64,000 nucleotides of DNA from an uncultured Planctomycetales bacterium. GTDB lineage: Bacteria; Omnitrophota; Gorgyraeia; Gygaellales; Profunditerraquicolaceae. The notes under the pieces are model-generated. The model ran no database searches, had not been told where the DNA came from, and was given only the letters and a program-made list of their open reading frames with translations. Position numbers and translations under genes: made by a program. Positions 45,052 through 62,510 of this stretch are shown one piece after another. The stretch spans positions 12,374 through 76,373 of the forward strand of contig CAZAPM010000001.1 in the NCBI GenBank assembly GCA_964487475.1, read 5' to 3'. Position 1 is the stretch's first letter, and each line of letters begins with the position of its first letter.

Positions 45052-46308
45052 ATGCACGATTTTTCGTATAAAAAAGGCAAGCTCTGTGTCGAGGATGTCA
45101 CGGTATCCGCGCTGGTCAGGGAATTCGGGACTCCGCTGTATGTGTACAGCTATGCCACGCTCCTGGGGCATTTCCTGAAACTGCAGCAGGCTTTCGCCGC
45201 GGTCTCGCCGCTTATCTGTTACTCGGTCAAGGCCAACTCCAATCTGGGGATACTCAACGCCCTGGTGGAAAAAGGGGCGGGGCTGGATATCGTCTCGGGA
45301 GGGGAGTTGTACCGGGCGCTCAAGGCCGGCTGTCCGGCGTCGCGCATCGTCTATGCCTCCGTCGGAAAGACCGATGCGGAGATCGAGGAAGCGATCCGGC
45401 GGGGGATACTGTTTTTCAACGTCGAGTCCCTTCCGGAGCTCGAACACATCAACCGTATCGCCGGCAGGCTGGGTAAGGTCACCCGCGCGGCGCTGCGCAT
45501 CAATCCCGACGTGGAAGCGAAGACCCATAAGTATATCACTACGGGCAAGCTCACCAACAAGTTCGGCATCGATCTGGAGCGGGCGGGCAGGATACTGCGC
45601 GCACAGCGGGATTTCGCCCATGTGCAGGTGTGCGGGATCCATATCCATATCGGCTCCCAGATCACCCAGAGCGCGCCCTTCGTGGCGGCGCTGACCAAGG
45701 TCAGCCGTTTTATCGAAGATCTGGTGCGGGCGGGGGTGCGGCTGGAGTATCTTAATATCGGCGGGGGCTTAGGTATCGTGTACCGGGACGAAAAGCCCCA
45801 GACGGCGGTGGTGTATGCCTCGCGTATCGTGCCGCTTTTGAAAAAGACCGGCCTGAAGATCATTATGGAGCCGGGAAGGTTCATCGTAGGCAACGCCGGC
45901 ATCCTGGTGACCCGGGTGCTGTACGTGAAACATACCCCGAAAAAGAAATTCATTATCGTGGACGGCGGGATGAACGATCTCATCCGGCCGGCACTCTACG
46001 AGGCGTACCATGAGATCCTGCCGGTGGAGGCGTCCCTCCAGCGGCGCAGGGAAAAAGCGGATATCGTCGGCCCCATCTGCGAAAGCGGTGACTACTTCGC
46101 CAAGGAGCGCCGGGTCGCCCGGGTGCGGGAGGGGGACCTTCTGGCCGTCATGAGCGCGGGCGCCTACGGTTTCAGTATGTCCTCGAATTATAATTCCCGC
46201 AGGCGGGCCGCGGAAGTGATGGTCAAGGGTAAGAGATGCTTCCTGTTGCGGGAGAGGGAGTCGTTCGGCGACCTTATCCGCAACGAACGCATCCCGAAGG
46301 TAGGATAG
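45052..46308 (+). CDS. lysA: diaminopimelate decarboxylase
   Basis: YSVKANSN (PLP Lys) and the alanine-racemase-like N-domain plus the C-terminal beta domain pattern. Confidence 0.9.
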   Translation: MHDFSYKKGKLCVEDVTVSALVREFGTPLYVYSYATLLGHFLKLQQAFAAVSPLICYSVKANSNLGILNALVEKGAGLDIVSGGELYRALKAGCPASRIVYASVGKTDAEIEEAIRRGILFFNVESLPELEHINRIAGRLGKVTRAALRINPDVEAKTHKYITTGKLTNKFGIDLERAGRILRAQRDFAHVQVCGIHIHIGSQITQSAPFVAALTKVSRFIEDLVRAGVRLEYLNIGGGLGIVYRDEKPQTAVVYASRIVPLLKKTGLKIIMEPGRFIVGNAGILVTRVLYVKHTPKKKFIIVDGGMNDLIRPALYEAYHEILPVEASLQRRREKADIVGPICESGDYFAKERRVARVREGDLLAVMSAGAYGFSMSSNYNSRRRAAEVMVKGKRCFLLRERESFGDLIRNERIPKVG

Positions 46309-46310
46309 GC

Positions 46311-47150
46311 ATGGGGAAAATGATTCCGTTCACCAAGATGGTCGGGTCCGGCAACGATTTCGTGGTCGTCGAAGGCGATGAGGTCCCCCGCGGATTCGAC
46401 GTGCATGCCTTTGCCAGGCAGGTATGCCCCCGCATGACGGGGATAGGGGCGGACGGAGTACTGCTTCTGGAGCGTACCAGAAAAGCCGACACCCGTATGC
46501 GCATCATCAATGCCGACGGTTCCGAGGCGGATATGTGCGGCAACGGCGCCCGCTGCGCGGTATATTATCTCACCCGGGTCCTGCCGTGCAAAAAAAACGC
46601 CTGGAAGGTGTCCCTGGAAACGAAGGCCGGGATCATCGAGGCGGCGGTGGCCGGGGACGTGGTCAGCATCAAGCTTACCCCGCCGCGCGGCCTGGCGCTG
46701 GATGTGCCTCTGGCGGTGCTCGGCCGGAAGATGCGGGTCAATTTCCTGAACACCGGAGTGCCGCATACCGTAATCTTCGTGGAAGGCCTGGATACGCTGG
46801 ATGTCGAAGCGCTCGGCCCGGCGATCCGTTATCATACACATTTCTCGCCGGCAGGCACGAACGTGAACTTCGTCGAGCCGTTAACCCGGAAAGCCATCGC
46901 GATCCGCACCTACGAGCGCGGGGTGGAGGGGGAGACGCTGGCCTGCGGCACGGGCAGCACCGCCTCGGCGCTGATCTTCGCGCTGGTCACCGGCGCCGAC
47001 AGTCCTGTTTCGGTGCACACCAGAAGCGGCGAGGTGCTGCGGGTATCTTTCGTCAGGGAAGGCAGCGCGTTGCATGAGGTATGGCTGGAAGGAAAAGCAC
47101 GGATCGTGTTCAAGGGAGAGGTTGCCTGTCTACAAGGGGGTAAACGATGA
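46311..47150 (+). CDS. dapF: diaminopimelate epimerase
   Basis: Start trimmed to MGKMIPFTKMVGSGNDF. The two catalytic Cys regions are GNGARC and ACGTGS. Confidence 0.9.
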   Translation: MGKMIPFTKMVGSGNDFVVVEGDEVPRGFDVHAFARQVCPRMTGIGADGVLLLERTRKADTRMRIINADGSEADMCGNGARCAVYYLTRVLPCKKNAWKVSLETKAGIIEAAVAGDVVSIKLTPPRGLALDVPLAVLGRKMRVNFLNTGVPHTVIFVEGLDTLDVEALGPAIRYHTHFSPAGTNVNFVEPLTRKAIAIRTYERGVEGETLACGTGSTASALIFALVTGADSPVSVHTRSGEVLRVSFVREGSALHEVWLEGKARIVFKGEVACLQGGKR

Positions 47151-47710
47151 TGGCGTGGATACTGCTGGCGATCGCGGCAGCCGGAGCGTTATGGCTGATC
47201 GGAGCGTATAACGGATTGGTGTCCCTGAAGAACCAGGTGGCGAACGGCTGGAAGCAGATCGACGTGCAGCTGAAGCGCCGCCATGACCTGATCCCTAACC
47301 TGGTGGAGACGGTCAAAGGCGCGATGGATTTCGAGCAGTCGACGCTCACCAAGGTGATCGAAGCGCGCAACAAGGCGATGTCGGCGACGTCCCTGACGGA
47401 TAAGGCGGCATCGGAGAGCATACTTACCGGCGCGCTGCGCCAGCTTTTCGCGCTGGTGGAGAGTTACCCCGCGCTCAAGGCGAACGAGAACGCGGTGAAA
47501 CTGCAGGAGGAGCTGGTCTCCACCGAGAACCGCATCGGTTTCGCCAGGCAGTTCTACAATGACATCGCCACCCGTTATAATATCGCGCAGGAGACCTTCC
47601 CGACGAATCTGATGGCGGCCCCGTTCGGTTTTTCCCGCGCGCAGCTCTTCGAGATCGCGGATGAAGGGGAGCGCCAGGTGCCCAAGGTCGATCTGAAGCT
47701 TACGAAATAA
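47147..47710 (+). CDS. lemA: LemA family protein
   Basis: N-terminal TM helix then the GYNGLVSLKNQVANGWKQIDVQLKRRHDLIPNLVETVK LemA consensus. ATGA overlap with dapF. Confidence 0.8.
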   Translation: MMAWILLAIAAAGALWLIGAYNGLVSLKNQVANGWKQIDVQLKRRHDLIPNLVETVKGAMDFEQSTLTKVIEARNKAMSATSLTDKAASESILTGALRQLFALVESYPALKANENAVKLQEELVSTENRIGFARQFYNDIATRYNIAQETFPTNLMAAPFGFSRAQLFEIADEGERQVPKVDLKLTK

Positions 47711-47740
47711 CCGGAGCGCGTCACCGTAATCATAAGGAGA

Positions 47741-48628
47741 ATGCCAGAGATGTTCAAAGGTTCGATCGTGGCGATTGTGACCCCGTTCAAGAACGGGAAA
47801 GTGGATGAGAGTAAGCTGCGTGAACTTATCGAGTTCCAGATCAAGAACGGGACCTCGGGTATCGTGCCTTGCGGTACCACCGGGGAATCCGCGACCCTTT
47901 CCTTCGCCGAGCACGAGCGGGTCATCGAAGTGACCATCGATCAGGTGAAGAAACGGGTGCCGGTGATCGCGGGCACCGGGTCCAACGCCACCGAAGAAGC
48001 GGTGATGCTGACCAAGCATGCCGCGCATATGGGCGCGGACGCCTCTTTGCAGGTGTCCCCGTACTATAACCGGCCCACGCAGCAGGGGCTCTTCGAGCAT
48101 TTCCGTGCCGTGGCCAAATCCGTGAACATCCCCATCATCCTTTACAATATCGCCTCCCGTACCGGGGTCAATATCGAGCCGGAGACCATCGCCAGGCTGG
48201 CGCAGGAATGCGGGAATATCGTCGCGGTCAAGGAAGCGTCGGGAAGCCTCGACCAGATGTCCCGGATCAAGCTGCTCTGCGGCCCGAAATTCGACCTGAT
48301 CTCCGGGGATGACAGCCTGACCCTGCCGCTGATGGCGATCGGCGGCACCGGGATCATCTCGGTGGTGGCCAATATCGTGCCGCATGACGTGGCGAGGATG
48401 TGCGCGGAGTTCGAAAAAGGCAACCTGAAAAAAGCCCAGGAACTGCACTTCAAGCTGCTTCCGCTGATCAAGGCGATGTTCATCGAGACGAACCCCGGAC
48501 CGGTCAAGACCGCCATGGGGATGCTGGGCCTCTGCGAGCCCGACCTGCGGCTGCCGATGGTGCCGGTGTCGGACGAGAATGCGGCTAAACTTAAAAAAGC
48601 CCTGAAAGAGTACGGGCTGTTGAAATAG
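47741..48628 (+). CDS. dapA: 4-hydroxy-tetrahydrodipicolinate synthase
   Basis: VAIVTPF...GIVPCGTTGES, and the Schiff-base Lys region within ...VAVKEASG. Confidence 0.9.
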   Translation: MPEMFKGSIVAIVTPFKNGKVDESKLRELIEFQIKNGTSGIVPCGTTGESATLSFAEHERVIEVTIDQVKKRVPVIAGTGSNATEEAVMLTKHAAHMGADASLQVSPYYNRPTQQGLFEHFRAVAKSVNIPIILYNIASRTGVNIEPETIARLAQECGNIVAVKEASGSLDQMSRIKLLCGPKFDLISGDDSLTLPLMAIGGTGIISVVANIVPHDVARMCAEFEKGNLKKAQELHFKLLPLIKAMFIETNPGPVKTAMGMLGLCEPDLRLPMVPVSDENAAKLKKALKEYGLLK

Positions 48629-48638
48629 CGGGGGAGCG

Positions 48639-49382
48639 ATGAGCGAGAATCCTTTCAAGGAGCAGAAAACCATCAAGATCGGCGTGATCGGCGCCTGCGG
48701 CAAAATGGGCCGCCGGATCATCGACCTGGCGTCGAACGACAGCGACCTGGAGGTCAATTTCGCCCTGGAGCAGAAGGGGACCCCGGCCATCGGACGGGAT
48801 GTCGGCCGGGTCAAGGTCTCCTCCAATCCGGACGGGATGATGCTCTGCGACGTGGTGATCGATTTCACCGTGCCGGAGTCATCCCTGGTGACGGTGGAGG
48901 CGGCGGCGCGGCATAAGAAACCGCTGGTGCTGGGCACCACCGGATTTACCGACGAGCAGGTGGCGAAGATCGAGCAGGCATCGCAGGTGATCCCTATCGT
49001 GTTCTCTCCCAACATGGCCATCGGGGTCAACGTGCTCTTCCGCGTGCTGGCGGATATCGCCCGTCAGCTCGGCCCGGAATATTCGGTCGAGCTGGTGGAA
49101 GCGCACCACAAGCAGAAGAAGGACGCTCCTTCCGGCACCGCCAAGAAGATGGCGCAGTGCATTACCGGGGCGACCGGAAGGCCCGTGCCCATGCATGCGG
49201 TGCGCCTGGGGGATATAGTCGGTGACCATACGGTCATCTTCTGCGGAAATTCGGAGCGCATCGAGGTCAAGCATCAGGCGCACACCCGCGACCTTTTCGC
49301 GGTGGGCGCGATCAAGGCTGCCCGGTGGGTCGTGCATAAGGCCGCCGGGTTGTATTCCATGCAGGACGTACTGGGAAAATAA
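48639..49382 (+). CDS. dapB: 4-hydroxy-tetrahydrodipicolinate reductase
   Basis: IKIGVIGACGKMGRRI Rossmann fold and EAHHKQKKDAPSGTA (the E-x-HH-x-x-K-x-D-APSGTA DapB signature). Confidence 0.9.
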   Translation: MSENPFKEQKTIKIGVIGACGKMGRRIIDLASNDSDLEVNFALEQKGTPAIGRDVGRVKVSSNPDGMMLCDVVIDFTVPESSLVTVEAAARHKKPLVLGTTGFTDEQVAKIEQASQVIPIVFSPNMAIGVNVLFRVLADIARQLGPEYSVELVEAHHKQKKDAPSGTAKKMAQCITGATGRPVPMHAVRLGDIVGDHTVIFCGNSERIEVKHQAHTRDLFAVGAIKAARWVVHKAAGLYSMQDVLGK

Positions 49383-49423
49383 CGCCCCCTTAAAGGGGCT
49401 CATTCATCAAGGAGCTTACAGGC

Positions 49424-50584
49424 ATGTACACGTTTTCAAAGAAGCTGCAGGCACTTCCTCCGTACCTTTTCCTCGAGATCGATAAAGCCAAACGCAAGGC
49501 GCGCGCCGAAGGCCGGGATATCATCGATCTCGGTATCGGCGATCCGGACCAGCCTACTCCGGCGCATGTGATCGAGGCGCTGGCCAAGGCTTCCCAGGAT
49601 CCGTCCACCCATAAATACGCGCTGGACCAGGGGATGCCAGTGCTGCGCCAGGCCATCGCCGGATGGTATCAGAAGCGTTTCGGGGTGCAGCTGCACACGG
49701 ACACCGAGGTGCTGCCTTTGATCGGGTCCAAGGAGGGGATCGCGCACCTGCCCCTGGCGTTCGTCGACCAGGGACAGTACACCCTGGTGCCGGACCCGTG
49801 TTATCCTCCGTATAAGGGGGGGACGATTCTCGCCGGCGGGAAACCCTATCTTTTGCCGCTGCGGGAGAAGAACGATTTCCTTCCCGACTTAGGAAAGATC
49901 CCGGCGCGCGTGCTCAAGAAAGCGCGGATCATATTCGTGAACTATCCCAATAACCCTACCGGACGCACCGCCGAGACGGCGTTCTATAAGGACCTGGTGG
50001 CCTTTGCCTCCAAATACGGATTGATCGTGGCTTCCGATCTGGCGTATTCGGAGATGTGTTACGACGGGTACCGTCCCGCGAGTTTCCTGGAGGTGCCGGG
50101 AGCCAGGGAGGTAGGCATCGAGTTCCATTCCCTTTCCAAGACCTATAATATGACCGGTTGGCGGGTGGGCTGGGCGTGCGGTAACGAAAAACTGGTGGCC
50201 GGCCTGGCCAAGGTGAAATCGAATGTGGATTCGGGGATCTTCTCCGCCATTCAGTTGGCCGGGGTCGCGGCGCTGGAAGGCCCTCAGGAGCATGTTTCCT
50301 CCATGTGCCGCATGTACCAGGAGAGGCGGGACGAACTGGTGCAGGGGCTGCGCGGCTTGGGCTGGAAGGTGACGGCGCCTAAAGCCACGTTCTATATCTG
50401 GTGCAAAGTGCCTGCGAGGATGGGCTCCATCGAGTTCGCGGCGAAGGTGCTGGAGCAAGCGAATATGGTGATCACTCCGGGTGTGGGTTTCGGGAAATAC
50501 GGGGAAGGGTATGTCCGCATGGCCCTTACCGTTTCCCGCGAGCGCATCCGGGAAGCGATCGGCCGTTTGCAGCGGATGGCATAA
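49424..50584 (+). CDS. class I/II PLP aminotransferase, probable LL-diaminopimelate aminotransferase (DapL-type)
   Basis: YLFLEIDKAKRKARAEGRDIIDLGIGDPD N-terminus, the SLSKTYNMTGWRVGW PLP-Lys region, and a position closing the dapF-dapA-dapB cluster. Confidence 0.55.
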   Translation: MYTFSKKLQALPPYLFLEIDKAKRKARAEGRDIIDLGIGDPDQPTPAHVIEALAKASQDPSTHKYALDQGMPVLRQAIAGWYQKRFGVQLHTDTEVLPLIGSKEGIAHLPLAFVDQGQYTLVPDPCYPPYKGGTILAGGKPYLLPLREKNDFLPDLGKIPARVLKKARIIFVNYPNNPTGRTAETAFYKDLVAFASKYGLIVASDLAYSEMCYDGYRPASFLEVPGAREVGIEFHSLSKTYNMTGWRVGWACGNEKLVAGLAKVKSNVDSGIFSAIQLAGVAALEGPQEHVSSMCRMYQERRDELVQGLRGLGWKVTAPKATFYIWCKVPARMGSIEFAAKVLEQANMVITPGVGFGKYGEGYVRMALTVSRERIREAIGRLQRMA

Positions 50585-50588
50585 GGAT

Positions 50589-50996
50589 ATGACGGTCTGT
50601 TACCTGGGGTTAGGTTCGAACCAGGGCGACAGGAAGCGCCTGATCCGCCGGGCGCTTGAAAATATCAACGCATTACCGGGGACGCGCGTGCTGAAAGTTT
50701 CCTCAATGATCGAGACCAGACCGGTGGGAGGCCCCCCAGGCCAGGGGCTTTATCTTAACGCCTGTGCCAAGGTCTCCACGTCCTTGTCTTGCCGTACCCT
50801 GCTTAATTCCCTCAAAAAGATCGAAAGAACGCTGGGCCGTATCCCGTGTTCCGTGCGCAACGCGCCGCGTCCGATCGATATCGATATACTTCTCTTCGGC
50901 GGGCTCACCCTGAAAAGCCGCCTCCTTACCATCCCTCATCCCCGGATGTTCTCCCGGGATTTCGTGCTGCGTCCGCTGCGGGAGGTCATATGGTGA
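50589..50996 (+). CDS. folK: 2-amino-4-hydroxy-6-hydroxymethyldihydropteridine pyrophosphokinase
   Basis: Start trimmed to MTVCYLGLGSNQGD. The GPRPIDIDILLFG motif is present. Confidence 0.8.
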   Translation: MTVCYLGLGSNQGDRKRLIRRALENINALPGTRVLKVSSMIETRPVGGPPGQGLYLNACAKVSTSLSCRTLLNSLKKIERTLGRIPCSVRNAPRPIDIDILLFGGLTLKSRLLTIPHPRMFSRDFVLRPLREVIW

Positions 50997-51832
50997 TCGT
51001 GCGCAGCGTCCCTCAGATGGCGGGGATCGGGCAGAGGCTGAAGCGGTCGGGCACGCGCGTGGGGTTCGTGCCGACCATGGGAGCGCTGCACGATGGGCAT
51101 GCCAGTTTGATACGCCGCAGCCTTAAGGAGATGGATAAGACCGTCGTAAGCATCTTTGTCAACCCGGCGCAATTCGCTCCGGGCGAGGACCTGGCCAAGT
51201 ACCCCCGGGTATTTCCGCAGGATGCGGCGCTTTGCCGGAAGCTGGGTGTCGAGTACCTTTTCTGTCCGACCGCGGAGGGGATGTATCCGCAAGGGTACGG
51301 TACGTTCCTGGAGGTAGAGGGGGTAAGCGCCGTCTTGTGCGGAAAATACCGTCCCGGTCATTTCCGCGGGGTAGCCACGGTGGTGGCGAAACTGTTCAAT
51401 ATCGTCGCGCCTGCCGCGGCGTACTTCGGCCGGAAGGATGCGCAACAGGCGTATATCGTGACGCAGGCGGCGCGGGACCTGAATTTCTCTTTATCGGTGC
51501 GCATCTGTCCGACGGTAAGGGAGGCGGACGGACTGGCGATGAGCTCCCGTAACCGGTATCTTTCCCCTCAGGAGCGGATCCGAGCGAGTGCGTTGTATCA
51601 GGCGCTGCGCCATGCAAAATATCTGGTCCGCGCGGGAGTGAGGGATGCCGCGACCGTAAAGAGGCAGATGTGCTCCCTGCTGCGCCGGGTTCCCGGTCTC
51701 AGGGTCCAGTATGCGCAGCTGGTCGATCCCCGGACATTCCTTCCCGTCAGGGATATCGATGCTCCCTGTCTGGCGCTGCTGGCGGCATACGTAGGCAAGA
51801 CCCGGTTGATCGACAATATGGAGATCGCATGA
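50990..51832 (+). CDS. panC: pantoate--beta-alanine ligase
   Basis: Start trimmed to MVIVRS. VGFVPTMGALHDGHASLI (HIGH-like motif) and the FGRKDAQQ region. Confidence 0.9.
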   Translation: MVIVRSVPQMAGIGQRLKRSGTRVGFVPTMGALHDGHASLIRRSLKEMDKTVVSIFVNPAQFAPGEDLAKYPRVFPQDAALCRKLGVEYLFCPTAEGMYPQGYGTFLEVEGVSAVLCGKYRPGHFRGVATVVAKLFNIVAPAAAYFGRKDAQQAYIVTQAARDLNFSLSVRICPTVREADGLAMSSRNRYLSPQERIRASALYQALRHAKYLVRAGVRDAATVKRQMCSLLRRVPGLRVQYAQLVDPRTFLPVRDIDAPCLALLAAYVGKTRLIDNMEIA

Positions 51833-52644
51833 AAACGCGGGTGGGAGTGGTCGGGTGCGGGGCGATCGGCAGTTCGCTGGCGATGCTGGTGGCCCGGAAA
51901 ATGCCCGGGATGCAGGTTTCCCGGGTATTCGACCTGGAAGCTTCCAAGTCCGTTACGCTTTCGCGCAGGCTTTGCGGGTCGGCGCGTCTGGCTGCGGGAA
52001 GCCTGGAGGCAGTGGTTTCCGCAAGCGATATCGTGGTCGAGGCGGCCTCCGCCCGCTGCAGCGCGGCGATCGCCCGATCGGCACTGCAGGCGGGAAAAAG
52101 CGTCCTGGTGATGAGCGTCGGAGGGATCCTTGCCGCCGCGCCCGGGCTGCAGAAACTGGCGCTGCGCACCGGAGGCAGGCTGCTGGTCCCCAGCGGCGCA
52201 GTGGCTGGTATCGATGCCCTGAAAGCCATGCGCTGGGTGAAGGTGTCCAAGGTCGTGCTTACCACGCGCAAGCCGGCGAAGGCGTTCGCGAATGTGCGGC
52301 TGCCTTCCGGGAAGACGGTGGATGCCGCCTCTATAGGGAAGGATACGGTGCTTTTTGAGGGGAGCGCCCGGGATGCCGTGCGGTATTTCCCCCAGAACAT
52401 CAACGTCGCGGCGGTGATCGCCCTGGCCGGGATCGGCGCCGGCCGCACCCGGGTGCGTATCGTGGCTTCCCCGGGGTTGAAGCGCAACGTGCATGAGGTG
52501 CAGGTGACGTCGGCTGCCGGCGTGCTCACCGCGGTGACGGAGAACGCGGTGCATCCGGATAATCCTAAGACGAGTTTTCTGGCCGTGCTTTCCGCGGCTG
52601 CGGCGCTGCAGGGGCATACGGCCCCGATGCGCGCCGGGTCGTGA
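51829..52644 (+). CDS. nadX: L-aspartate dehydrogenase family protein (NadX-like)
   Basis: Start trimmed to MKTRVGVVGCGAIG, with ATGA overlap onto the panC stop. Blocks VPSGAVAGIDAL, LFEGSARDAVRYFPQNINVAAV and NPKTSFLAVLSAAAAL parallel Thermotoga NadX. Confidence 0.75.
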   Translation: MKTRVGVVGCGAIGSSLAMLVARKMPGMQVSRVFDLEASKSVTLSRRLCGSARLAAGSLEAVVSASDIVVEAASARCSAAIARSALQAGKSVLVMSVGGILAAAPGLQKLALRTGGRLLVPSGAVAGIDALKAMRWVKVSKVVLTTRKPAKAFANVRLPSGKTVDAASIGKDTVLFEGSARDAVRYFPQNINVAAVIALAGIGAGRTRVRIVASPGLKRNVHEVQVTSAAGVLTAVTENAVHPDNPKTSFLAVLSAAAALQGHTAPMRAGS

Positions 52645-52689
52645 CGCAGTTGTATCAAAATCCAAAACAGGAAGGGGGTGAACAAAACT

Positions 52690-52932
52690 ATGGCAGAGAA
52701 GGTCGCAAAAGCGGGTATCAAGCGGGAGAAAGGGTACCTTTATTACCTTGACAAACAGGGTGATGTCTCTTGCGCGAAGATGGCCCGGGGCGATAAGAAG
52801 GGTGGCAGCCCCAAGAAATGCGTGAAGTTGGGCATCAAGCGTAAGGAAGGGTACCTCTATTTCATCGACAAGCAGGGTGATGTTTCCTGCGCCAAGATGA
52901 AGGTCGGCGGCAAAAAGAAGAAAAAGAGATAA
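52690..52932 (+). CDS. small Lys-rich protein built from a tandemly duplicated ~33-aa motif
   Basis: GGAAGGGGG RBS 10 nt upstream. The motif G-I-K-R-x-K-G-Y-L-Y-(Y/F)-(L/I)-D-K-Q-G-D-V-S-C-A-K-M occurs twice. Poly-Lys C-terminus. Confidence 0.45.
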   Translation: MAEKVAKAGIKREKGYLYYLDKQGDVSCAKMARGDKKGGSPKKCVKLGIKRKEGYLYFIDKQGDVSCAKMKVGGKKKKKR

Positions 52933-53016
52933 GCCGTCAGAGGTCGTGGCCCCTGCATGCATGAAGTGCGGTTGTGTGCAGGGGCCTACTTTTCGCGGTA
53001 TAACCGGAACAGGTGG

Positions 53017-54843
53017 ATGATGGAGCGCAGAACTTCCTGGTGGCTGGCAGCGGCGGGGTTTGCCGCGTACACGGTCTTATTCTCCTTCTTCTGCGCCCAG
53101 AAGTACCGTTCATTCTCATATCATGATTTCGACCTGGCCGTGCATGCGCAGGGGATGTGGAACCTGCTGCACGGGTCGCTGCATAATTCCATCTTAAGCA
53201 TCCCGTATCTGGGCAACCACATGCATCTGATCATGTTCTTTGCGCTGCCCGTGTACGCGCTGTGGACTTCGCCGGTGGCATTATTGTTCCTGCAGACCCT
53301 GGCGCTGGGTGCCGCGGTGTTCCCTTTGTGGGCGCTCGCGCGCAGAAGGCTCGATGCGGGATGGGCGGCAGTGATCGCAGTCGCATATCTCCTGTATCCC
53401 GCGGTCGGCTACGTGAACCTTTATGAGTTCCACCCGCCTGCGTTTGCCGCGTTCTTCCTGGCGGTGATGTGGTATTATTTCTCGGTGCGGCGTTTTCTTC
53501 CTTTCCTGGCCGCTGCGGTGCTGTCGATGCTCTGTCAGGAGAATGTCTTCCTGGCAGTGGGGATGTGCGGGCTGCTGGCCTGGAGGCAGAAAAGGAGCGC
53601 GCGATGGATCGTCGCTCCGATCGCCTGTGCCCTCGCGTACGCTGCGGGATCCCTGGCGCTGATGGGGACACTCAACGGCAACACCGTGCAGTATCAGTCG
53701 CTCTACGGGCATCTGGCGGCGAACCCCGGCTGGGTGATGCGGCCGCAGGTCTGGCAGTATCTCTTCACGCTATTCCTGCCGCTTTCTTTCCTGCCCGTGC
53801 TGGGCGCAGGGGCGCTGTTTCCGGCGCTGCCTTTCTTCCTCCAGCACGCGCTTTCCCGGCGCCCGCACGAACTGATGATCTCCTACCATTATACGGCGGA
53901 AATGCTGCCGTTCATTTTCGCCGCGGCGATAGAGGGGGTGGCATTCCTTCGCCGCCGCCAAAGTTCCGGGAAGTCGCAGCGTATCCTGCAGGGATCGGTG
54001 CTGCTGGTGGCGGCAGGGGCGAACCTGTTCCTTTACGGCCCGGGTGGTAAGTTCCTCGCGCCTCCCCGGGTTGACGCGCGCAGCGCCTATAAGGAAGCAT
54101 TGGTGCGCCTGGTCCCCGAACATTCGTCCGTGGTCGCCACCTTCGATTTCCTCTCCCATCTGGCGCACCGGAGAGAGCTTTACTCTTTTCACCACCAGGT
54201 CACCGGATTGCATACGCTTTCCGACAAGCCTTTTGAGCTTCCCGGTGATCTGGAGTACGCGCTGATCGATTTCGACGACCGTATCACCTTCCTGGGGTTC
54301 TATACTCCGCAGCGGCATGAGGTGCTGGCGAAGTTCTTCCTCGGGTACGATTGGCGGGTGCGGGAGTATCGGGACACCGTGGTGCTGCTTTCCCGCGATG
54401 TCAACGATCCGCCGCTTTCCGGCCTGGTGCGCAAGGGGCAGACGGACCCCGCGAAGTCCGCTGTTCCCGAAGCGACCGTGGGAAAGGGCGCCTTCGCGCT
54501 CGCCTTTGCCCGGGTGAGCCGGGGAGCCGGGGGAAAGGTGTGGGATGTCGCGCTGCGCTGGGAAAGCCTGCGGCCGGTGGATAAGGATTACATGATGTAT
54601 TTCGAAGAGTGCGATCTTACCGGGCAGGTGCAGGCCAGGACGTATTTTCCGGTCGCGTACCGGATCTTTCCCACGCACACCTGGAAACCCGGGGAGTTCG
54701 TGGAGCAGCGCGTGCGTTTTTCCGTCTCTTCGCCGGCTGCGGCGAGGCTGCGCATCGGGTTCTATGATTACAATGACGGAGCGCTCCTGCCCGTGGACGG
54801 GGTGCAGGATGAGCTCGGGCGTTTTGAGCTGAAAGGCGAGTAA
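53017..54843 (+). CDS. DUF2079 family polytopic membrane protein (putative GT-C-like glycosyltransferase) with a large C-terminal soluble domain
   Basis: Start trimmed to MMERRTSWW (AGGTGG RBS). It has about 10 TM helices. An SYHDFDLAVHAQ motif lies near the first loop, as in DUF2079 proteins. Confidence 0.55.
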   Translation: MMERRTSWWLAAAGFAAYTVLFSFFCAQKYRSFSYHDFDLAVHAQGMWNLLHGSLHNSILSIPYLGNHMHLIMFFALPVYALWTSPVALLFLQTLALGAAVFPLWALARRRLDAGWAAVIAVAYLLYPAVGYVNLYEFHPPAFAAFFLAVMWYYFSVRRFLPFLAAAVLSMLCQENVFLAVGMCGLLAWRQKRSARWIVAPIACALAYAAGSLALMGTLNGNTVQYQSLYGHLAANPGWVMRPQVWQYLFTLFLPLSFLPVLGAGALFPALPFFLQHALSRRPHELMISYHYTAEMLPFIFAAAIEGVAFLRRRQSSGKSQRILQGSVLLVAAGANLFLYGPGGKFLAPPRVDARSAYKEALVRLVPEHSSVVATFDFLSHLAHRRELYSFHHQVTGLHTLSDKPFELPGDLEYALIDFDDRITFLGFYTPQRHEVLAKFFLGYDWRVREYRDTVVLLSRDVNDPPLSGLVRKGQTDPAKSAVPEATVGKGAFALAFARVSRGAGGKVWDVALRWESLRPVDKDYMMYFEECDLTGQVQARTYFPVAYRIFPTHTWKPGEFVEQRVRFSVSSPAAARLRIGFYDYNDGALLPVDGVQDELGRFELKGE

Positions 54844-54847
54844 AGAC

Positions 54848-56533
54848 ATGCAACAGGTGCATTGCGATCTCTGCCAGTCGAGTTACTATTCCGTGGTATA
54901 CGAGATCCCCGGTCAAGGTTCCCTGGATACCGCGCCGGCGTATAAGATCACCCGGGATAAAGTGCCGGGGGTGGGGATGCGGCTGGTCAAGTGCCTTAAG
55001 TGCGGCTTAGTCTACATGAACCCGCAGGCCGCGCCGGAGGCGGTCGAAGGGATGTACCGGCAGATGCAGGATGACGAGTACCTGGCGGAGGAGCGGGGAA
55101 GAAGGCTCTCCGCCCGGCGGATCCTGAAAAAGATCGGCCGCGTCAGGAAAGGCGGCAGGCTGCTGGAAGTGGGGTGCGCCACCGGATTCCTCGTCGATGA
55201 AGCGGGAAAAGCGGGGTGGGAAGCGCAGGGGGTGGAGGTCTCTCCCTGGGCGGCGCAGTGGGCTCGGGAGAAGCTCGGACTGAAAGTCACGCCGGGCACG
55301 CTCGAGCAGGCGCGATTCCCTTCGAACTATTTCGATGCCGTGGTGATGGTGGATGTGATCGAGCATCTGTGCGCTCCCCGGCAGGCGCTCACGGAAGTGC
55401 GCAGGATACTCAAACCCGACGGCGTGCTGTGCCTCAGCGCTCCCGATATCGAAAGCCTGATGAGCCGCATCCTGCGGGCGCGCTGGTGGGGGATCCAGCA
55501 TTCGCACCTGTTCTATTTTTCGCGCGCCACCCTTTCCAAGATGCTCGATGCGGCGGGTTTCAAGCCGCTGCGTTTCGATTCCCATGCCCGGGTGTTCAGT
55601 GTATCCTACTGGGGTGCCCGCCTGAAGCAGTACAGCGAAGGGGTGTTCCGTATCTTCGATCTGTGCACCCGCCTGGCGGGAAGGAAGGGTTCCCTGCTGA
55701 CCCTCAATTTCCGGGACCAGCTCGACTGTGTGGCGGTCAAGAAGCGCAGCCTGGCGTATCTCGAATCGGATGAGGAGCGGCCGTTATCCCCCGGAGGGCA
55801 GAGAAAAGCCAAGGTGACGGTGGTACTGCCGGCGTACAATGCCGCGAGGACGCTGGAGCGCACGGTCGCGGATATCCCCCGGGATGTCGTGGACCGGATC
55901 ATCCTGGTCGACGATGCCAGCCGGGACTCGACCGTAGAGGTCGCCAGGAAACTGGGCCTGGACGTCTTCGTGCACGAGAGGAACAAAGGGTACGGAGGCA
56001 ATCAGAAGACCTGTTATGACCGGGCGCTTCAGGCGGGAGCGGATATCGTGGTCATGGTGCATCCGGATTACCAGTACGATCCCACCGCCATCCCGGACAT
56101 GGTCGCGCCGATACTGCGGGGGGACGCGGATGCGGTGTTCGGTTCGCGCATGATGAAGGGGGGAGCGCTGGAGGGGGGGATGCCTCTGTGGAAGCACAAC
56201 GTCAACATCCTGCTTTCCGCCCTGGAGAACGTGGTGCTGGGGACGTACCTGACGGAGTACCACAGCGGGTTCAGGGCCTACAGCGCGCGGTATCTCAAGG
56301 CGGTGAACTACCGGGCGAACTCCGACGGTTTCGTGTTCGATAACGAGATCATCGTGCAGGGACTGCTGCATTACATGAAGATCGAAGAGGTGCCGATCAA
56401 GACCAGGTATTTCTCCGAAGCTTCGACCATAAAACCTTTGGCCGCGGTCTGGTACGGGCTGGGTATCCTGGGAGTGCTATGCCGGTACCTTTTGCACGTC
56501 AAGGGGATCGTACGGGTTTCGCAGTTCGAATAA
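54848..56533 (+). CDS. fusion: Zn-ribbon + class I SAM methyltransferase domain / family-2 glycosyltransferase (DPM1-like polyprenyl-phosphate sugar synthase) domain
   Basis: N-terminus CDLC...CLKCG and [15 protein letters not shown] (methyltransferase motif I). C-terminus [16 protein letters not shown]...VDDASRDST...HPDYQYD (GT2 DxD region) with a terminal TM helix. Confidence 0.7.
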
Positions 56534-56545
56534 AGGGCAAACCTT

Positions 56546-59338
56546 ATGGATGAGATCATAATCAGGGGCGCGCGGGAACATAACCTTAAGAACATCGATC
56601 TGACCCTGCCGCGTAACAAGCTTATCGTGGTGACGGGGCTTTCCGGGTCGGGAAAGTCCAGCCTGGCGTTCGATACCATCTATGCCGAAGGCCAGCGCCG
56701 GTATGTGGAGAGCCTCTCCAGCTATGCCCGCCAGTTCCTGGAGCAGCTGCAAAAGCCCCAGGTGGAGCATATCGAAGGGCTTTCCCCGGCTATCGCCATC
56801 GAGCAGCGCGGGGCGGGAGGCAATCCCCGCTCGACCGTGGCCACCCAGACCGAGATATACGATTACTTAAGGCTGCTTTTCGCGCGCATCGGCAAGGTCT
56901 ACTGTTACCAGTGCGGCCGGCCCATAGCGCGGCAGAGCGCGCAGGAGATCGTCTCTCAGGTCCTGAGATTCCCGCAGCCCTGCCAGGTGATGATCCTGGC
57001 GCCTATGGTGCAGGGCAAGAAGGGGGAGTACCGGGATATCTTCTCCCAAATACAGAAAGCCGGGTTCGTGCGCGCCAGGATCGACGGGAAGGTGTGCACC
57101 GCGGAGGATGCCCCGAAGCTGGATAAATACAAGGTGCACACCATCGAGGTCGTGGTGGACCGGATCAGGGCGGAGGCGGGGCAGAAGCAGCGACTGACCG
57201 ATTCCGTGGAAACGGCCCTGAAGGTCGGCAAGGGGCATGCGGTGGTGGCGGTGGAAGGGGGCAAGGAACATCTCTTCAGCGAGGAGTATGCCTGTACCTC
57301 CTGCGGGATAAGTTATGCGGAAGTCGAGCCGCGCACCTTCTCCTTCAATTCTCCCTACGGCGCCTGCCCCGAATGCAACGGCCTGGGCACGAAGCTCGAG
57401 TTCGACGAGGCGCTGGTAGTGCCTGATGCGTCCCGTTCGATCAACGAAGGAGCGCTCGAGCCGTGGAGGCGGGGTGGCAAGGGGTATATCATGTACTACC
57501 GCTGGCTGCTGCGGGAACTGTCCCGGGAGATGGGGTTTTCCCTGGATGCGCCCTTTAAATCCTTTTCCAAGAAGACCCGCAAGTCCATCCTCTACGGTAC
57601 GGACGAGGTGGAGGTGGGGGATAAGCCTTTCGAGGGAGTGATACCCCATCTGGAGCGGCTATTCCGCCAGACGGAGAGCGATTACCTCAAGGAGGAGATC
57701 TCCAAGTATATGTCCACGCTTCCCTGCCCGGCGTGCGGGGGCGCCCGTTTGCGCAGGGAGAGCCTGGCGGTCAAGGTGCAGGGCAAGAACATCTCGGAAG
57801 TGACGCAGATGTCGATCAAGGACGCCGTGAGCTACTTTGCCGGACTGGAGCTTACGGAACGCGAACAGGCGATCGCCGCCCAGGCGCTCAAGGAGATCAC
57901 CCAGAAGCTGCGCTTCTGCGTCGACGTAGGGCTGGATTACCTCACTCTGGACCGCAAGAGCGCCACCCTCTCCGGGGGAGAGGCGCAGCGCATCAGGCTG
58001 GCCACCCAGGTCGGTTCCGGTCTGGTGGGAGTGCTCTACGTGCTCGACGAGCCAAGTATCGGGCTGCACCAGCGGGACAACGACAAGCTTATCGCCACGA
58101 TGCTGCGGCTGCGCGACCTGGGGAACACCATCATCGTGGTGGAGCATGACGAGTACACGATGCGCGCCGCGGATTATCTGGTGGACCTGGGCCCGGGCGC
58201 GGGAAGGCTGGGCGGGCATGTGGTGTGCGCCGGCCCGAGGGAGGAGTTCCTGCGCTGCAAGGATTCCCTGACCGCCCGTTACCTGCGGGGGGAGATCGTG
58301 CTGCCGGTCCCCGGACAGCGCCGGCCCTGGGAAGGCAGGCCCTGTCTCGAGGTCAAGGGCGCCAGGGCGCATAACCTGAAGGATATCGACGCGCGTTTTC
58401 CTTTGGGGACGTTCATCTGTGTGACCGGGGTCTCCGGGTCGGGAAAATCCACCCTGATCGACGATATCCTTTATAAGGCGCTGGCCCAGAAGCTGTACCA
58501 TTCCAAGGAACGGCCGGGCGCACATGCCCAGCTGAAAGGGGTGGAGCACATCGATAAGGTGATCGTGGTGGACCAGGCTCCCATCGGCCGCACTCCCCGT
58601 TCGAACCCCGCGACGTATACGGGAGTGTTCGCGCCCATCCGGGACCTTTTTTCCAAACTTCCCGAATCCCGGGCCAGAGGCTATAAACCGGGGCGTTTTT
58701 CCTTCAACGTGAAAGGCGGCCGCTGCGAGACGTGCATGGGCGACGGGATCAAGAAGATCGAGATGCACTTCCTGGCCGATGTTTACGTGAAATGCGATAT
58801 CTGCCGGGGGAGGCGCTTTAACGAGGCGACCTTGGAGGTTACCTACAAGGGTAAGTCCATCGCCGACGTGCTGGAGATGACGGTGGAGGAGGGGCTGGAC
58901 CTTTTTTCCAGCATCCCCCAGATCAGGCATACGCTTTCCTACCTGAACGACGTGGGTTTAGGGTATATCCAGATCGGCCAGGCCGCGACCACGCTTTCCG
59001 GAGGCGAGGCGCAGCGCATCAAGCTTTCCGCCGAGCTTTCCCGGCGCGCGACCGGAAGGACTCTCTATATCCTTGACGAGCCTACCACCGGGCTGCACTT
59101 CGCGGACGTGCAGAAGCTCATCGCCGTGCTGCAGCGCCTGGTGGATAAGCACAACACCGTGATCGTGGTCGAGCACAACCTGGAAGTCATCAAATCCGCG
59201 GATTACCTTCTGGACTTAGGCCCGGAGGGAGGGGACGCGGGGGGCAGGATCGTCGCCGCCGGAAGCCCCGAAGAAGTGGCGCAGGTGAAAGCCTCCTTTA
59301 CCGGCGCGTTCCTGCGAAACGTATTGAAGAAGCAATGA
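56546..59338 (+). CDS. uvrA: excinuclease ABC subunit A
   Basis: Two ABC modules ([20 protein letters not shown]; LSGGEAQR twice) and the CxxC zinc-finger insertions. Confidence 0.95.
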
Positions 59339-59360
59339 GTAAGTGGTATAGTACCTTTCT

Positions 59361-61847
59361 ATGAAACTTCAATCCATGCGAATTTTTCTTGCCGTTGCCG
59401 CGTTTTTTTCCGCTGTCGTTCTTTTCCCGGAGCCGCCTGTCGGCGCCCAATCCGTCTCCAAGGAACAAGAGATGCTCTTCGTGGCCCGCAAGGCCCTTGA
59501 CGACGGGTTTTACGACGTCAGTCTGGGGCTGTTGGACCGTTTCATCAAGACGTACCCTCAGTCCGCCCAGATCCCGGAGGCGCAGCTTTTGGTCGGCCAG
59601 TGCTATTTCCAGCAGAACCGTTACCTTGACGCGCTTGGCAAGTTCGAGGAGCTTTTGCGCAATCCCGGCGCCCGGGAGATCAAGGACGCGCTGCATTACT
59701 GGATCGCGGAAGTCCACTTCAAGGGGAATAATTTCGCCAAGGCCGCGGAGTACTACAAGAAGGTGATCGATGTCACCCCGCCTTCCGCATACCGTCTGGC
59801 AGCCTATTATTCCTTGGGGTGGTGCCTTTTACAGGAAGGCAAGTACCAGGAAGCCCTGAAATACTTCAAGACCGTGGAGGAGACCTATCCTAAGGAATCC
59901 CTGGCGAAGGACGCGGCGTTCAAGTCCATCGAGTGCCTTTATAACCTCAAGCAGTACCCGGCGCTCCAGGAGAAGGTCAGGTACTGCCTGAAGAAATTCA
60001 GCGACGATCCCTCCAAGCTCCCGTACCTTAATTACTACATGGCCGAGGCGTTCTACTACCAGAACAATTTCACCGAGGCCGCCGCCTGGTATGAGAAGGT
60101 GCTGGTGACCACCAGAGACGAAAAGATACTCTCGTTGTCCCGGATGGGGATGGGGTGGTCCTATCTGAAGCTGAAGCGTTATCCCGAGGCGCTTTCCGCC
60201 TTTTCCGCGGTCGTTCCGGACCATCTGGAACGCGCCAGCCGCGAAGTGCTGCTGCTGGGGAAAGCCACTCTGTTCGTGGAGCGCAAGGACTGGGAGCAGT
60301 CGGTCGCGGTGTATGAGGAGCTTTTGACCGTGGCGGCCGACCTGGAGGTGATCGTGCAGGCGTATCTGGGCCTGGCGGAATCCCAGTACAACCTTTCCCG
60401 TTATGCGCAGGCGATGGAAACGTACAAACGCGCCCTGGCCAAGGCGGAGGATAAGGTCTCGCAGGAGGTGCTGGATAAGCTGCATTACGGTCTGGCCTGG
60501 TCGTATCTGAAGGAGGGCGAGTTCAAGAGCGCCATAGAGGAGTTCCGCCGGATCGCGAAATCGAGCACGGATAAGATGGTCAAGGTGGCCGCGCTCTGCC
60601 AGATCGGGGATACCTACCAGGATTCTGCGGAGTATCAGAAGGCGATCCAGACGTATGACGGGATACTCAAGGAGTATCCCGATACCTTTTACAGCGATTA
60701 CGTGCAGTATCAGCTGGGGTTGAGCCTGCTCAAATCATCCCAGTATGACAGCGCGGTGGTCGCGTTCCAGAAGCTCAAAGCCGGTTTTCCGGACTCGAAA
60801 CTGGTGGATGATGCCACGTATGCGCTGGGCCTGGCGTATTTCCAGCGCGAGAACTATGCCGCCAGCCGCGAGGTGTTCTCCCAGTTCCAGCGGGAATTCA
60901 AGGACAGCCCTTTGCGGGCCCAGGCCACCTATCTGCTCGGAACGAGCTGGTTCAACCAGGGAAAATACGCGGAAGCGGTGGAGGTGTTCAAGGATGTGGT
61001 TCGTCTCTACGGGGATGACCAGGACCTGGTGCAGAAAGCGGAATACGAGATCGCGGATTGCTATTATCAGATGGGCAACGAGAAGGAAGCGATGACCAGG
61101 TTCAAGGCCCTGCGCACCAAGTACCCGGATTCCAGCCTGACCGCCGAGGTGATGTGGTGGCTGGGAGAGTATTATTTCCGGCATAAGGACCTGGTGCTGG
61201 CGCGCCGCTATTTCTCTTCCCTGATACAGGATTATTCCAAGAGCCCGCTGGTCACCGACGCTTATTTCGCGCTCGCCTCCATCGACGTGGAGGAGGATAA
61301 GCCCCGGGAGGCGATCGAAAAATTCAAGAAAGTGATGGCCCTGGGAAAGACCGACTTAGCCGGTACCGCGGCTATCTCCATCGCGGATGTGTACGCCAAG
61401 ATGGAACAGTACGGCCAGGCGCTCGACGCCCTGAAGGAGACGGTCGCGCGCAATGCCAATCTTGCGCCTTTCGTCTACCCGAAGATGGGGGATATCTACC
61501 GGACGCAGGCGCAGTTCGATGAAGCGCTGCATTGGTACCGCAAAGCGCTGGAGATCGTGCCGGTGCGGGAGACCAGCCGGATGCAGTTCAGGATAGGGGA
61601 GGTGCTGGAGCAGCAGCAGCGGTACGGACAGGCGATCGAGGAGTACCTGAAGGTGCCCTACCTTTTCTCCGAGACCAGCGAGTTGTCGGTCAAGGCGTAT
61701 CTGCGGGTGGCGTCCCTGTACGAGGAGCAGGAGAAGCTCAAGGATGCCGCGGCGGTGTACGCGAAACTCGCGGGAATGAACGTGGACGAGTCGAAATATG
61801 CGCGCGAGCGCATTGAATGGATCAATAACGTCATGCGCGGCCGGTAG
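59361..61847 (+). CDS. periplasmic tetratricopeptide-repeat protein (828 aa)
   Basis: Signal peptide. More than 15 TPR-like A/Y/L-rich 34-aa repeats throughout. Confidence 0.75.
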   Translation: MKLQSMRIFLAVAAFFSAVVLFPEPPVGAQSVSKEQEMLFVARKALDDGFYDVSLGLLDRFIKTYPQSAQIPEAQLLVGQCYFQQNRYLDALGKFEELLRNPGAREIKDALHYWIAEVHFKGNNFAKAAEYYKKVIDVTPPSAYRLAAYYSLGWCLLQEGKYQEALKYFKTVEETYPKESLAKDAAFKSIECLYNLKQYPALQEKVRYCLKKFSDDPSKLPYLNYYMAEAFYYQNNFTEAAAWYEKVLVTTRDEKILSLSRMGMGWSYLKLKRYPEALSAFSAVVPDHLERASREVLLLGKATLFVERKDWEQSVAVYEELLTVAADLEVIVQAYLGLAESQYNLSRYAQAMETYKRALAKAEDKVSQEVLDKLHYGLAWSYLKEGEFKSAIEEFRRIAKSSTDKMVKVAALCQIGDTYQDSAEYQKAIQTYDGILKEYPDTFYSDYVQYQLGLSLLKSSQYDSAVVAFQKLKAGFPDSKLVDDATYALGLAYFQRENYAASREVFSQFQREFKDSPLRAQATYLLGTSWFNQGKYAEAVEVFKDVVRLYGDDQDLVQKAEYEIADCYYQMGNEKEAMTRFKALRTKYPDSSLTAEVMWWLGEYYFRHKDLVLARRYFSSLIQDYSKSPLVTDAYFALASIDVEEDKPREAIEKFKKVMALGKTDLAGTAAISIADVYAKMEQYGQALDALKETVARNANLAPFVYPKMGDIYRTQAQFDEALHWYRKALEIVPVRETSRMQFRIGEVLEQQQRYGQAIEEYLKVPYLFSETSELSVKAYLRVASLYEEQEKLKDAAAVYAKLAGMNVDESKYARERIEWINNVMRGR

Positions 61848-61877
61848 GCCTGCGGGGCGGACATTTAAGGAGGAACC

Positions 61878-62510
61878 ATGGAACTGTATAAGATGAACTT
61901 CTGGCAGGTCTTCTTGGCGGGGGGGCCGGTGATGTGGCCCATTTTGCTCTGTTCGGTGTTCGCCCTGGCGATCATCATCGAGAGATTCCTTTACCTGCGC
62001 CGGGTCAAGGTCGGCACCGCGGAGTTCCTGCAGGGCATTCTGGACAAGATGAAGCGCCACCAGATCAAGGAAGCGCTGGAAGCCTGCGATGCCAACCCCA
62101 GCCCCATCGCCCATATCCTCAAGGGAGGTATCCTTAAGTACGACCGGCCGAAACCGCAGATCAAGGAAGCGATCGAGGATGCGTCCCTTTTCGAGATACC
62201 TAAGCTGGAGAAGCATCTGCCGGCGTTGGCAACCATCGCGCACATCTCGCCGTTATTGGGGCTTCTGGGAACGGTTACGGGTATGGTGCAGGCGTTCCAG
62301 GTGATCCAGGCCAAGTCCACCAGCCTGCATCCCGTGTCCCCGGGCGATCTGGCCGGAGGCATCTGGGAGGCGCTGCTGACCACGGTCGCCGGCCTGGTGG
62401 TCGCGATCCCCACCTTCGTCGCGTATAATTATCTGGTGCACCGGGTCAACAGCATCATCCTGGAGATGGAAAAAGCGGCCACCGAATTTGTCAACTTCCT
62501 GAGCGAGTAA
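61878..62510 (+). CDS. exbB: MotA/TolQ/ExbB proton-channel family protein
   Basis: Three TM helices and the conserved C-terminal block AEALLTTVAGLVVAIP. Confidence 0.85.
   Translation: MELYKMNFWQVFLAGGPVMWPILLCSVFALAIIIERFLYLRRVKVGTAEFLQGILDKMKRHQIKEALEACDANPSPIAHILKGGILKYDRPKPQIKEAIEDASLFEIPKLEKHLPALATIAHISPLLGLLGTVTGMVQAFQVIQAKSTSLHPVSPGDLAGGIWEALLTTVAGLVVAIPTFVAYNYLVHRVNSIILEMEKAATEFVNFLSE

Follow-up and report, generated by a model that had tools for sequence, protein, structure and literature searches.

A widespread family of small, highly basic two-module proteins from Omnitrophota and other largely uncultured prokaryotes, with a possible role in DNA binding

We analysed a 64,000-nucleotide stretch of DNA (hereafter, the window) from contig CAZAPM010000001.1 of an Omnitrophota genome, deposited as an uncultured Planctomycetales bacterium, and focused on a small gene at positions 52690–52932 of the plus strand, on which all of its features given below also lie. 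The coding sequence runs from an ATG at 52690 to a TAA at 52930–52932 and specifies an 80-amino-acid protein, MAEKVAKAGIKREKGYLYYLDKQGDVSCAKMARGDKKGGSPKKCVKLGIKRKEGYLYFIDKQGDVSCAKMKVGGKKKKKR, with 21 Lys, 4 Arg, 5 Asp and 3 Glu residues (25 basic against 8 acidic), an isoelectric point of about 10.0 and a net charge of about +17. It ends in KKKKKR, as a preliminary description of the locus had pointed out, and no signal peptide was seen in it by inspection. Because the homologues all begin with MA(E/Q)K, we place the start at ATG 52690; the same opening rules out an upstream GTG at 52678. The gene is single-copy within the window and is not set apart from the other window genes by its G+C content at third codon positions (GC3), its Lys codons or its Gly codons. 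A protein of identical sequence is encoded on five other contigs.

The protein is built from two copies of a conserved module of about 31 amino acids. Module 1 (52699–52791; residues 4–34, KVAKAGIKREKGYLYYLDKQGDVSCAKMARG) and module 2 (52816–52908; residues 43–73, KCVKLGIKRKEGYLYFIDKQGDVSCAKMKVG) are separated by a Lys/Gly-rich linker (52792–52815; residues 35–42, DKKGGSPK), which varies in length and sequence across the family and is rich in Lys, Gly and Arg everywhere, and are followed by a Lys-rich C-terminal tail, GKKKKKR (52909–52929). Residues 9–31 (GIKREKGYLYYLDKQGDVSCAKM) and 48–70 (GIKRKEGYLYFIDKQGDVSCAKM) are identical at 19 of 23 positions. In the DNA, the duplication appears as a 70-nt direct repeat, the reference copy at 52713–52782 and the second, 83% identical over the 70 nt, lying 117 nt downstream at 52830–52899. 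The preliminary description had recognised the tandem duplication and had given its unit as about 33 amino acids, or about 99 bp; the duplication stands, but the period is 39 amino acids (117 bp), and the dipeptide that had been written as a variable (E/K)K reads EK in one copy and KE in the other. The duplication is old, and we reject a recent duplication or a gene-conversion tract. Between the two copies, the proportion of differing synonymous sites (pS) is 0.59, near saturation, and that of nonsynonymous sites (pN) is 0.07; the DNA repeat is therefore a consequence of amino acids that have stayed conserved since an old duplication. The copies share only about 75% of their nucleotides in other loci, and within the Omnitrophota orthologous modules are 84–85% identical, compared with 72–73% for paralogous ones.

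The gene is under intense purifying selection. Comparison with 47 related loci gave pN values of 0.08–0.23 and pS values from 0.6 to about 1 (saturated); where dS could be computed, the ratio of nonsynonymous to synonymous substitution rates (dN/dS) was about 0.05–0.15 at most. The small protein is also far more constrained than its neighbours: its median identity was 76.6%, compared with 41.9% for aspartate dehydrogenase (AspDH), 48.6% for PanC and 55.9% for the DapL-type aminotransferase in the same genome pairs. An unconserved reading frame, or a dN/dS near 1, had been named beforehand as grounds for abandoning the protein; we found instead thousands of relatives and strong purifying selection, which exclude a spurious open reading frame (ORF). 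The ORF at 52690–52932 is a real gene.

The signals that surround the gene are, as judged from sequence, of a type typical of high expression. An extended Shine–Dalgarno site, GGAAGGGGGTGA, lies at 52670–52681, with 8 nt between it and the ATG. Paired with a generic 16S 3′ end, it is predicted to form a duplex of −17.5 kcal/mol, the strongest of the 45 window genes (runner-up, −12.0), in agreement with the strong ribosome-binding site noted in the preliminary description, and nearly all related loci have the same extended motif, (A)AGG(A/G)GGTGA, ahead of the gene. After the stop codon, a terminator-like hairpin at 52948–52993 combines a 14-bp GC-rich stem (52948–52961 paired with 52973–52986), an 11-nt loop and a trailing UAC and UUUU, with a fold energy of −39.4 kcal/mol (z = −5.7). 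Hairpins with z < −2 were found within 70 nt of the stop in 57 of 73 related loci, mostly with a T-run (median z = −4.8), and an archaeal locus has long oligo-T runs in place of the hairpin. A strict terminator scan made no call at the window hairpin, because its loop exceeds 8 nt and its T-run is short, and Rfam gave no RNA element or family around the gene. The gap from the upstream aspDH gene is 45 nt, and a weak promoter-like site (GTGACG-18-GATAAT, 52534–52563) lies within aspDH. For the DUF2079 membrane-protein gene that follows, the public (JGI) annotation puts the start at ATG 52957, inside the hairpin; a homologue (L008) and an AGGTGGA Shine–Dalgarno site favour an ATG at 53017 or 53020, which would leave an intergenic region of 84 nt that contains the hairpin.

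The family is large and crosses domains. An index search returned 3,269 homologues at E ≤ 1, the best 120 of which are 75–130 amino acids long and 78–100% identical. When 1.84 billion cluster representatives were searched with a profile, 1,027 family clusters (at 50% identity) matched at E ≤ 1e-3 and 315 at E ≤ 1e-10. One genome per GTDB species was screened for G[YF]LYFIDK as the only pattern, and a member was confirmed in at least 563 species genomes. Carriers among the matches listed include Omnitrophota, Elusimicrobiota (including Endomicrobiellum), Nitrospirota metagenome-assembled genomes (MAGs), one Babeliaceae MAG and Woesearchaeota, and a second subfamily is common in Marinimicrobia/SAR406, Tara Oceans contigs included. 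The gene also occurs in MAGs labelled ‘uncultured Planctomycetia’, in Omnitrophota synteny; several loci (L007, L009, L010, L012, L013, L018 and others) combine ‘uncultured Planctomycetia/Planctomycetales’ titles with Omnitrophota gene order, and the labels of such MAGs are probably generic or wrong. The Woesearchaeota contig is truly archaeal: the gene lies there alongside genes for an OapA-like GTPase, OapB, OapC and an Ssb-like OB-fold protein. In this locus (L047), the latter genes, the first three of which encode origin-associated proteins, occupy positions 361–1807, a few kilobases upstream of the family member, and the region may be close to a replication origin.

Five viral contigs in IMG/VR carry members, and tblastn searches of cultured phage and plasmid collections gave no match. 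On two viral contigs (L094 and L095), the match spans only 117 nt, that is, one module; in L095 it lies at about 4001–4117, in a stretch between ORF calls that precedes a ParB-like/methyltransferase gene, and may be a single-module mini-ORF. The source names of family members are all ‘hypothetical protein’, except for two evident mis-annotations: P0417 and P0297 are named ‘20S proteasome alpha/beta subunit’ and ‘CO dehydrogenase/acetyl-CoA synthase gamma subunit’, both evidently spurious, and the proteasome label parallels weak chance hits to the Pfam Proteasome family in 5 of 60 members.

Across this family, the module follows the consensus K-V-x-K-x-G-[IV]-K-[RK]-E-x-G-[YFW]-L-Y-[FY]-[ILV]-D-K-x-G-[DN]-[VI]-[SA]-[RK]-x-K-M-x-R-G. 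In module 1, the positions conserved family-wide are K4, K7, G9, R12, G15, Y18, D21, K22, G24, R/K28, M31 and R33; in module 2, Y57 is invariant and G54, D60 and G63 are at least 95% conserved. The near-invariant structural positions are the turn Gly residues, Tyr18/Tyr57 and Asp21/Asp60. Lys or Arg occupies positions 4, 7, 11, 12, 22, 28, 30 and 33, and their equivalents in module 2, in 47–98% of 60 diverse members; on this alignment, the basic positions within the folded modules reflect conservation, beyond mere composition. The conserved Cys to which the preliminary description had attached weight holds up inside the Omnitrophota subfamily, in which C28 and C67 are invariant or nearly so, but not family-wide, in that the same positions carry Arg or Lys in 63–75% of members and Cys in 6–7 of 60. 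A metal-binding or redox-active site formed by the one Cys of each module would account for the pattern in Omnitrophota, yet we consider it extremely unlikely: the family alignment largely refutes it, and two Cys residues plus a non-conserved C44, with no Cys-pair motif, could not make up a standard zinc site. Because Cys is not a feature of the family, it should not drive the interpretation.

Searches for a known family or fold, made with the window protein and the 60 diverse members, found none in Pfam, NCBIfam or PHROGs above cut-off; the only matches below the Pfam and PHROGs cut-offs were weak ones to DUF5050, Proteasome and phrog_9154. A single-protein search of PDB sequences gave no matches, fold searches gave no match to a known fold, and neither the motif nor the family was found in the literature searched, including work on the Omnitrophota nucleoid or small proteins. 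The earlier remark that the family was not recognised was thus borne out, and we rate the protein as belonging to an undescribed family, putatively within a known kind, the small basic nucleic-acid-binding proteins. AlphaFold2, run with a 37-sequence alignment, predicted an all-beta model (predicted local distance difference test score (pLDDT), 83; predicted template modelling score, 0.61) with three strands per module, at residues 3–6, 16–20 and 26–30 in module 1 and 42–45, 55–59 and 65–69 in module 2; the last block, which holds the tail, had a pLDDT of 57. A six-module relative (P0123), modelled from its single sequence without an alignment, gave a pLDDT of 40.

Several candidates of known type could be set aside. 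The strand KGYLYFI recalls the cold-shock RNP1 motif KGFGFI, but hhalign against Escherichia coli CspA gave a probability of 0.1%, and there was no match to a cold-shock domain in Pfam or to an OB fold. HU/IHF had no match in Pfam, NCBIfam, PDB sequences or fold searches, and neither an SH3-like five-stranded barrel nor a sequence match of the Sso7d/Cren7 kind was found. Choline- or cell-wall-binding repeats, which are secreted and follow a G-W-x-x-x-G-x-W-Y-Y pattern of about 20 amino acids, were rejected given the 39-amino-acid period and the lack of a signal peptide here; the best PDB match of the family profile to a choline-binding protein had E = 0.41.

The sole recurring resemblance is to propeller blades, which we treat as a lead and not as a claim of homology. 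DUF5050 scored 16.1 bits for the window protein against a cut-off of 27 (E = 0.0068) and matched weakly in 7 of the 60 members, and Ldl_recept_b gave no match. The family profile reached E = 0.002 against the YWTD propellers of LRP6, aligning ‘vgikrekGyLYfiD’ with ‘avvvnpekGYMYFT’, and hhalign gave a probability of 2% against a YWTD domain of LDLR. On this lead, the modules could be propeller-blade-like units of self-assembly, the two-module protein forming a ring or another multimer, for example as 3 × 2 blades, and acting mainly as a scaffold or engaging another polyanion or partner (polyphosphate, an anionic membrane or a protein), with any DNA binding incidental; we regard this alternative as unlikely.

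Evidence that bears on the ligand comes from the relatives. Their C-terminal tails range from about 3 to more than 60 residues rich in Lys, Ala and Pro. Long tails of this type, reminiscent of histone H1 and with 20 to more than 60 residues, occur in many relatives, for example P0142, P0265, P0128, P0163, P0164, P0228, P0267 and P0269, and the Woesearchaeota member ends in 65 amino acids of (KKKAV)n. Such tails are a hallmark of DNA binders, among them eukaryotic H1, Chlamydia Hc1, mycobacterial HupB and AlgP. Fusions, which we inspected in the best 150 of the 1,027 clusters, include two independent clusters in which ParB_N and HTH_ParB domains are followed by two modules in place of the C-terminal domain; a search with the C terminus of one ParB fusion found only 11 small proteins and no more fusions. 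The modules are also fused to an HNH endonuclease (51 bits; cut-off, 21.4) and, again above the Pfam cut-offs, to GAF plus Prok-RING, and one relative has a weak match to a NucS-like nuclease (E = 0.012). On a 59.9-kb viral contig, the gene comes immediately after one for a DNA primase/helicase, with a DNA helicase gene two genes further on.

We favour the reading that the 80-amino-acid protein is a housekeeping, probably abundant nucleic-acid binder, most likely of DNA and without sequence specificity, that is, a nucleoid-associated (‘histone-like’) protein of a new family. We hold this reading tentatively, at a probability of roughly 0.45; the nucleic-acid binding, the preference for DNA over RNA and the abundance are all inferred from sequence. 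Four features favour DNA as the ligand: the basic surface conserved within the folded modules, tails of the H1 type, fusions to ParB and HNH domains and, in a phage, a place in the replication module. The nucleic-acid-binding role proposed in the preliminary description fits the same observations, which bear on it indirectly. An abundant core component is favoured because of the expression signals and the extreme constraint. The patchy spread across phyla and domains would be easier to explain for a generic DNA binder than for a part of a co-evolved machine.

In the mechanism we propose, each module of about 31 amino acids would fold as a small antiparallel beta-meander (KV.K | GI(K/R)RE | GYLYFI | DVS(R/C)AK), the surface of which would display conserved Lys and Arg residues together with tyrosines. 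Both modules, with their Lys/Gly linker and Lys-rich tail, would then make up one multivalent cationic surface able to clamp the backbone of DNA. Binding or condensation of DNA would be stronger in relatives that have more modules or longer tails of the H1 type. A bolder version combines this with the blade lead: the modules would be minimal propeller-blade-like units that self-assemble on DNA as a ring or filament, a new structural class of chromatin protein spread horizontally between prokaryotes that are ultra-small or have reduced genomes (Omnitrophota, Elusimicrobiota, Marinimicrobia, Dependentiae and DPANN Woesearchaeota) and some of their phages, and serving as their main DNA-compacting protein. 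We consider this version decidedly improbable.

The genomic context speaks to whether the protein works with a fixed partner. In Omnitrophota, the gene lies in a conserved order, dapF-dapA-dapB-dapL-folK-panC-(panD-nadA)-aspDH-[gene]-uvrA-TPR-exbB, which spans 46236–62510 in the window and was seen in loci L004 and L006–L086; of 83 loci, 41 have aspDH directly upstream and 43 have uvrA directly downstream. In the window, the DUF2079 gene (to 54843) and a methyltransferase–glycosyltransferase fusion gene (54848–56533) are inserted between the small gene and uvrA (56546–59338). Elsewhere the neighbours are aspS (Nitrospirota MAGs), a KamA-like gene or panB (Elusimicrobiota) or unrelated genes (Marinimicrobia). 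Because no functional partner conserved across phyla was found, we dropped guilt-by-association as an argument; the lack of such a partner implies a stand-alone role, which we count in favour of a nucleoid protein.

A stand-alone gene for a small, very basic protein, with a very strong Shine–Dalgarno site and a terminator, is also what RNA binding would lead one to expect. The protein could be associated with the ribosome in particular lineages or serve as an RNA chaperone of general function, with the strand tyrosines and basic residues contacting rRNA or single-stranded RNA. It is conserved to the same extreme degree as small ribosomal or cold-shock proteins, its K-G-aromatic-x-aromatic-hydrophobic strand recalls RNP-type motifs by inspection, and the gene follows the KamA-like gene in some Elusimicrobiota and aspS in the Nitrospirota MAGs. 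However, searches of Pfam, NCBIfam and PDB sequences, the last covering many ribosome structures, matched neither a ribosomal protein family nor a cold-shock domain, and the hhalign comparison with CspA was empty. The small gene lies outside any ribosomal or translation operon, has no ribosomal neighbours in 86 loci and lies 17 kb from rplM–rpsI in the window. Tails of 3 to more than 60 residues, module numbers of 2, 3, 4, 6 and about 8 and the varied fusions would be unusual for a protein held in a fixed rRNA pocket. We judge an RNA-binding role unlikely, if less so than the scaffold alternative. The suggestion in the preliminary description of a ribosome-associated protein found no specific support, given the missing ribosomal-protein matches, the missing ribosomal operon and the wide variation in tail length and module number.

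Several observations weigh against a nucleoid protein. No sequence or fold similarity to any known DNA-binding protein was found. The high identity among relatives exceeds the usual need of non-specific DNA binding and hints at other constraints, such as self-assembly or a fixed macromolecular partner. Many fusions have no relation to DNA: OmpA, DoxX and double zinc ribbons were found above their Pfam cut-offs and SHOCT below it (23.4 bits; cut-off, 27), and among the relatives with 3, 4, 6 or about 8 modules some carry them behind N-terminal membrane anchors. A module that serves generally in oligomerisation or as an adaptor would fit these fusions as well. For ParB, HNH and phage alike, the cases amount to one or two clusters each of the 1,027, the tail of the window protein itself has only 7 residues, and the recurrent placing next to uvrA in Omnitrophota may reflect no more than synteny within the phylum.

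Set beside known systems, the closest functional analogy that we would propose is to Sso7d/Sac7d and Cren7, which are basic, all-beta, lineage-restricted and abundant proteins of 60–80 amino acids that bind DNA without sequence specificity. Many family members share (K/A/P)n-type tails with Chlamydia Hc1, mycobacterial HupB and Pseudomonas AlgP, whereas the window protein has only GKKKKKR and, in its folded part, shows no relationship to HU or Hc1. In canonical ParB, the C-terminal domain is Lys-rich and serves in dimerisation and non-specific DNA binding; the modules occupy the same C-terminal position in the two ParB clusters, yet have no sequence similarity to it. Nearest in sequence pattern are the YWTD (LDL-receptor class B)/DUF5050 blades, with all scores under the family thresholds; propellers of this kind have six or more tandem blades per chain, whereas the window protein has two modules and is cytoplasmic and extremely basic, with three AlphaFold2 strands per module. 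Oligomeric propellers assembled from chains of one or two blades, of the RSL type (Ralstonia lectin) or from WRAP fragments (PMC6805158), also have two tandem blade-like repeats in a chain of about 80–90 amino acids, but they are neutral or acidic, sugar-binding or engineered, and four-stranded in their blades. The 80-amino-acid protein could be assigned to none of these systems.

The phyla that carry the family are abundant in oceans (Marinimicrobia/SAR406) and in groundwater and sediments (Omnitrophota, Elusimicrobiota and DPANN) and are almost wholly uncultured. That a small protein among their most conserved genes, with strong expression signals, is unannotated marks a gap in basic cell biology. 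If it is indeed a nucleoid protein, the prokaryotic chromatin proteins, of which few are known, would gain a new fold, and there would be a handle on how DNA is packed in cells of about 0.2 μm (PMC10066038). A ribosomal protein or a self-assembling blade fragment would be as informative, for lineage-specific ribosome composition or for propeller evolution, respectively.

Some further features were noted in the relatives and in the window. In four independent clusters (P0176, P0211, P0222 and P0266), the modules are fused to a common C-terminal domain of about 90 amino acids (K-P-x-V-K-Y ... V-N-x-V-P-K-K-Y); this had no match in Pfam, NCBIfam or PDB and is thus a second unannotated domain. Two antisense ORFs, at 51598–52962 (minus strand; 454 amino acids, GC3 0.64) and 51747–52721 (minus strand; 324 amino acids), overlap aspDH and the small gene; with GC3 below that of the sense genes, both look like high-GC artefacts, and we rejected them. 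Finally, a single plus-strand ORF of 2,688 amino acids at 13019–21085, with a signal-peptide-like N terminus and a GC3 of 0.78, lies between fatty-acid synthesis genes and recG; a preprint (bioRxiv 10.64898/2026.06.07.730766) reports very long proteins as an Omnitrophota trait.
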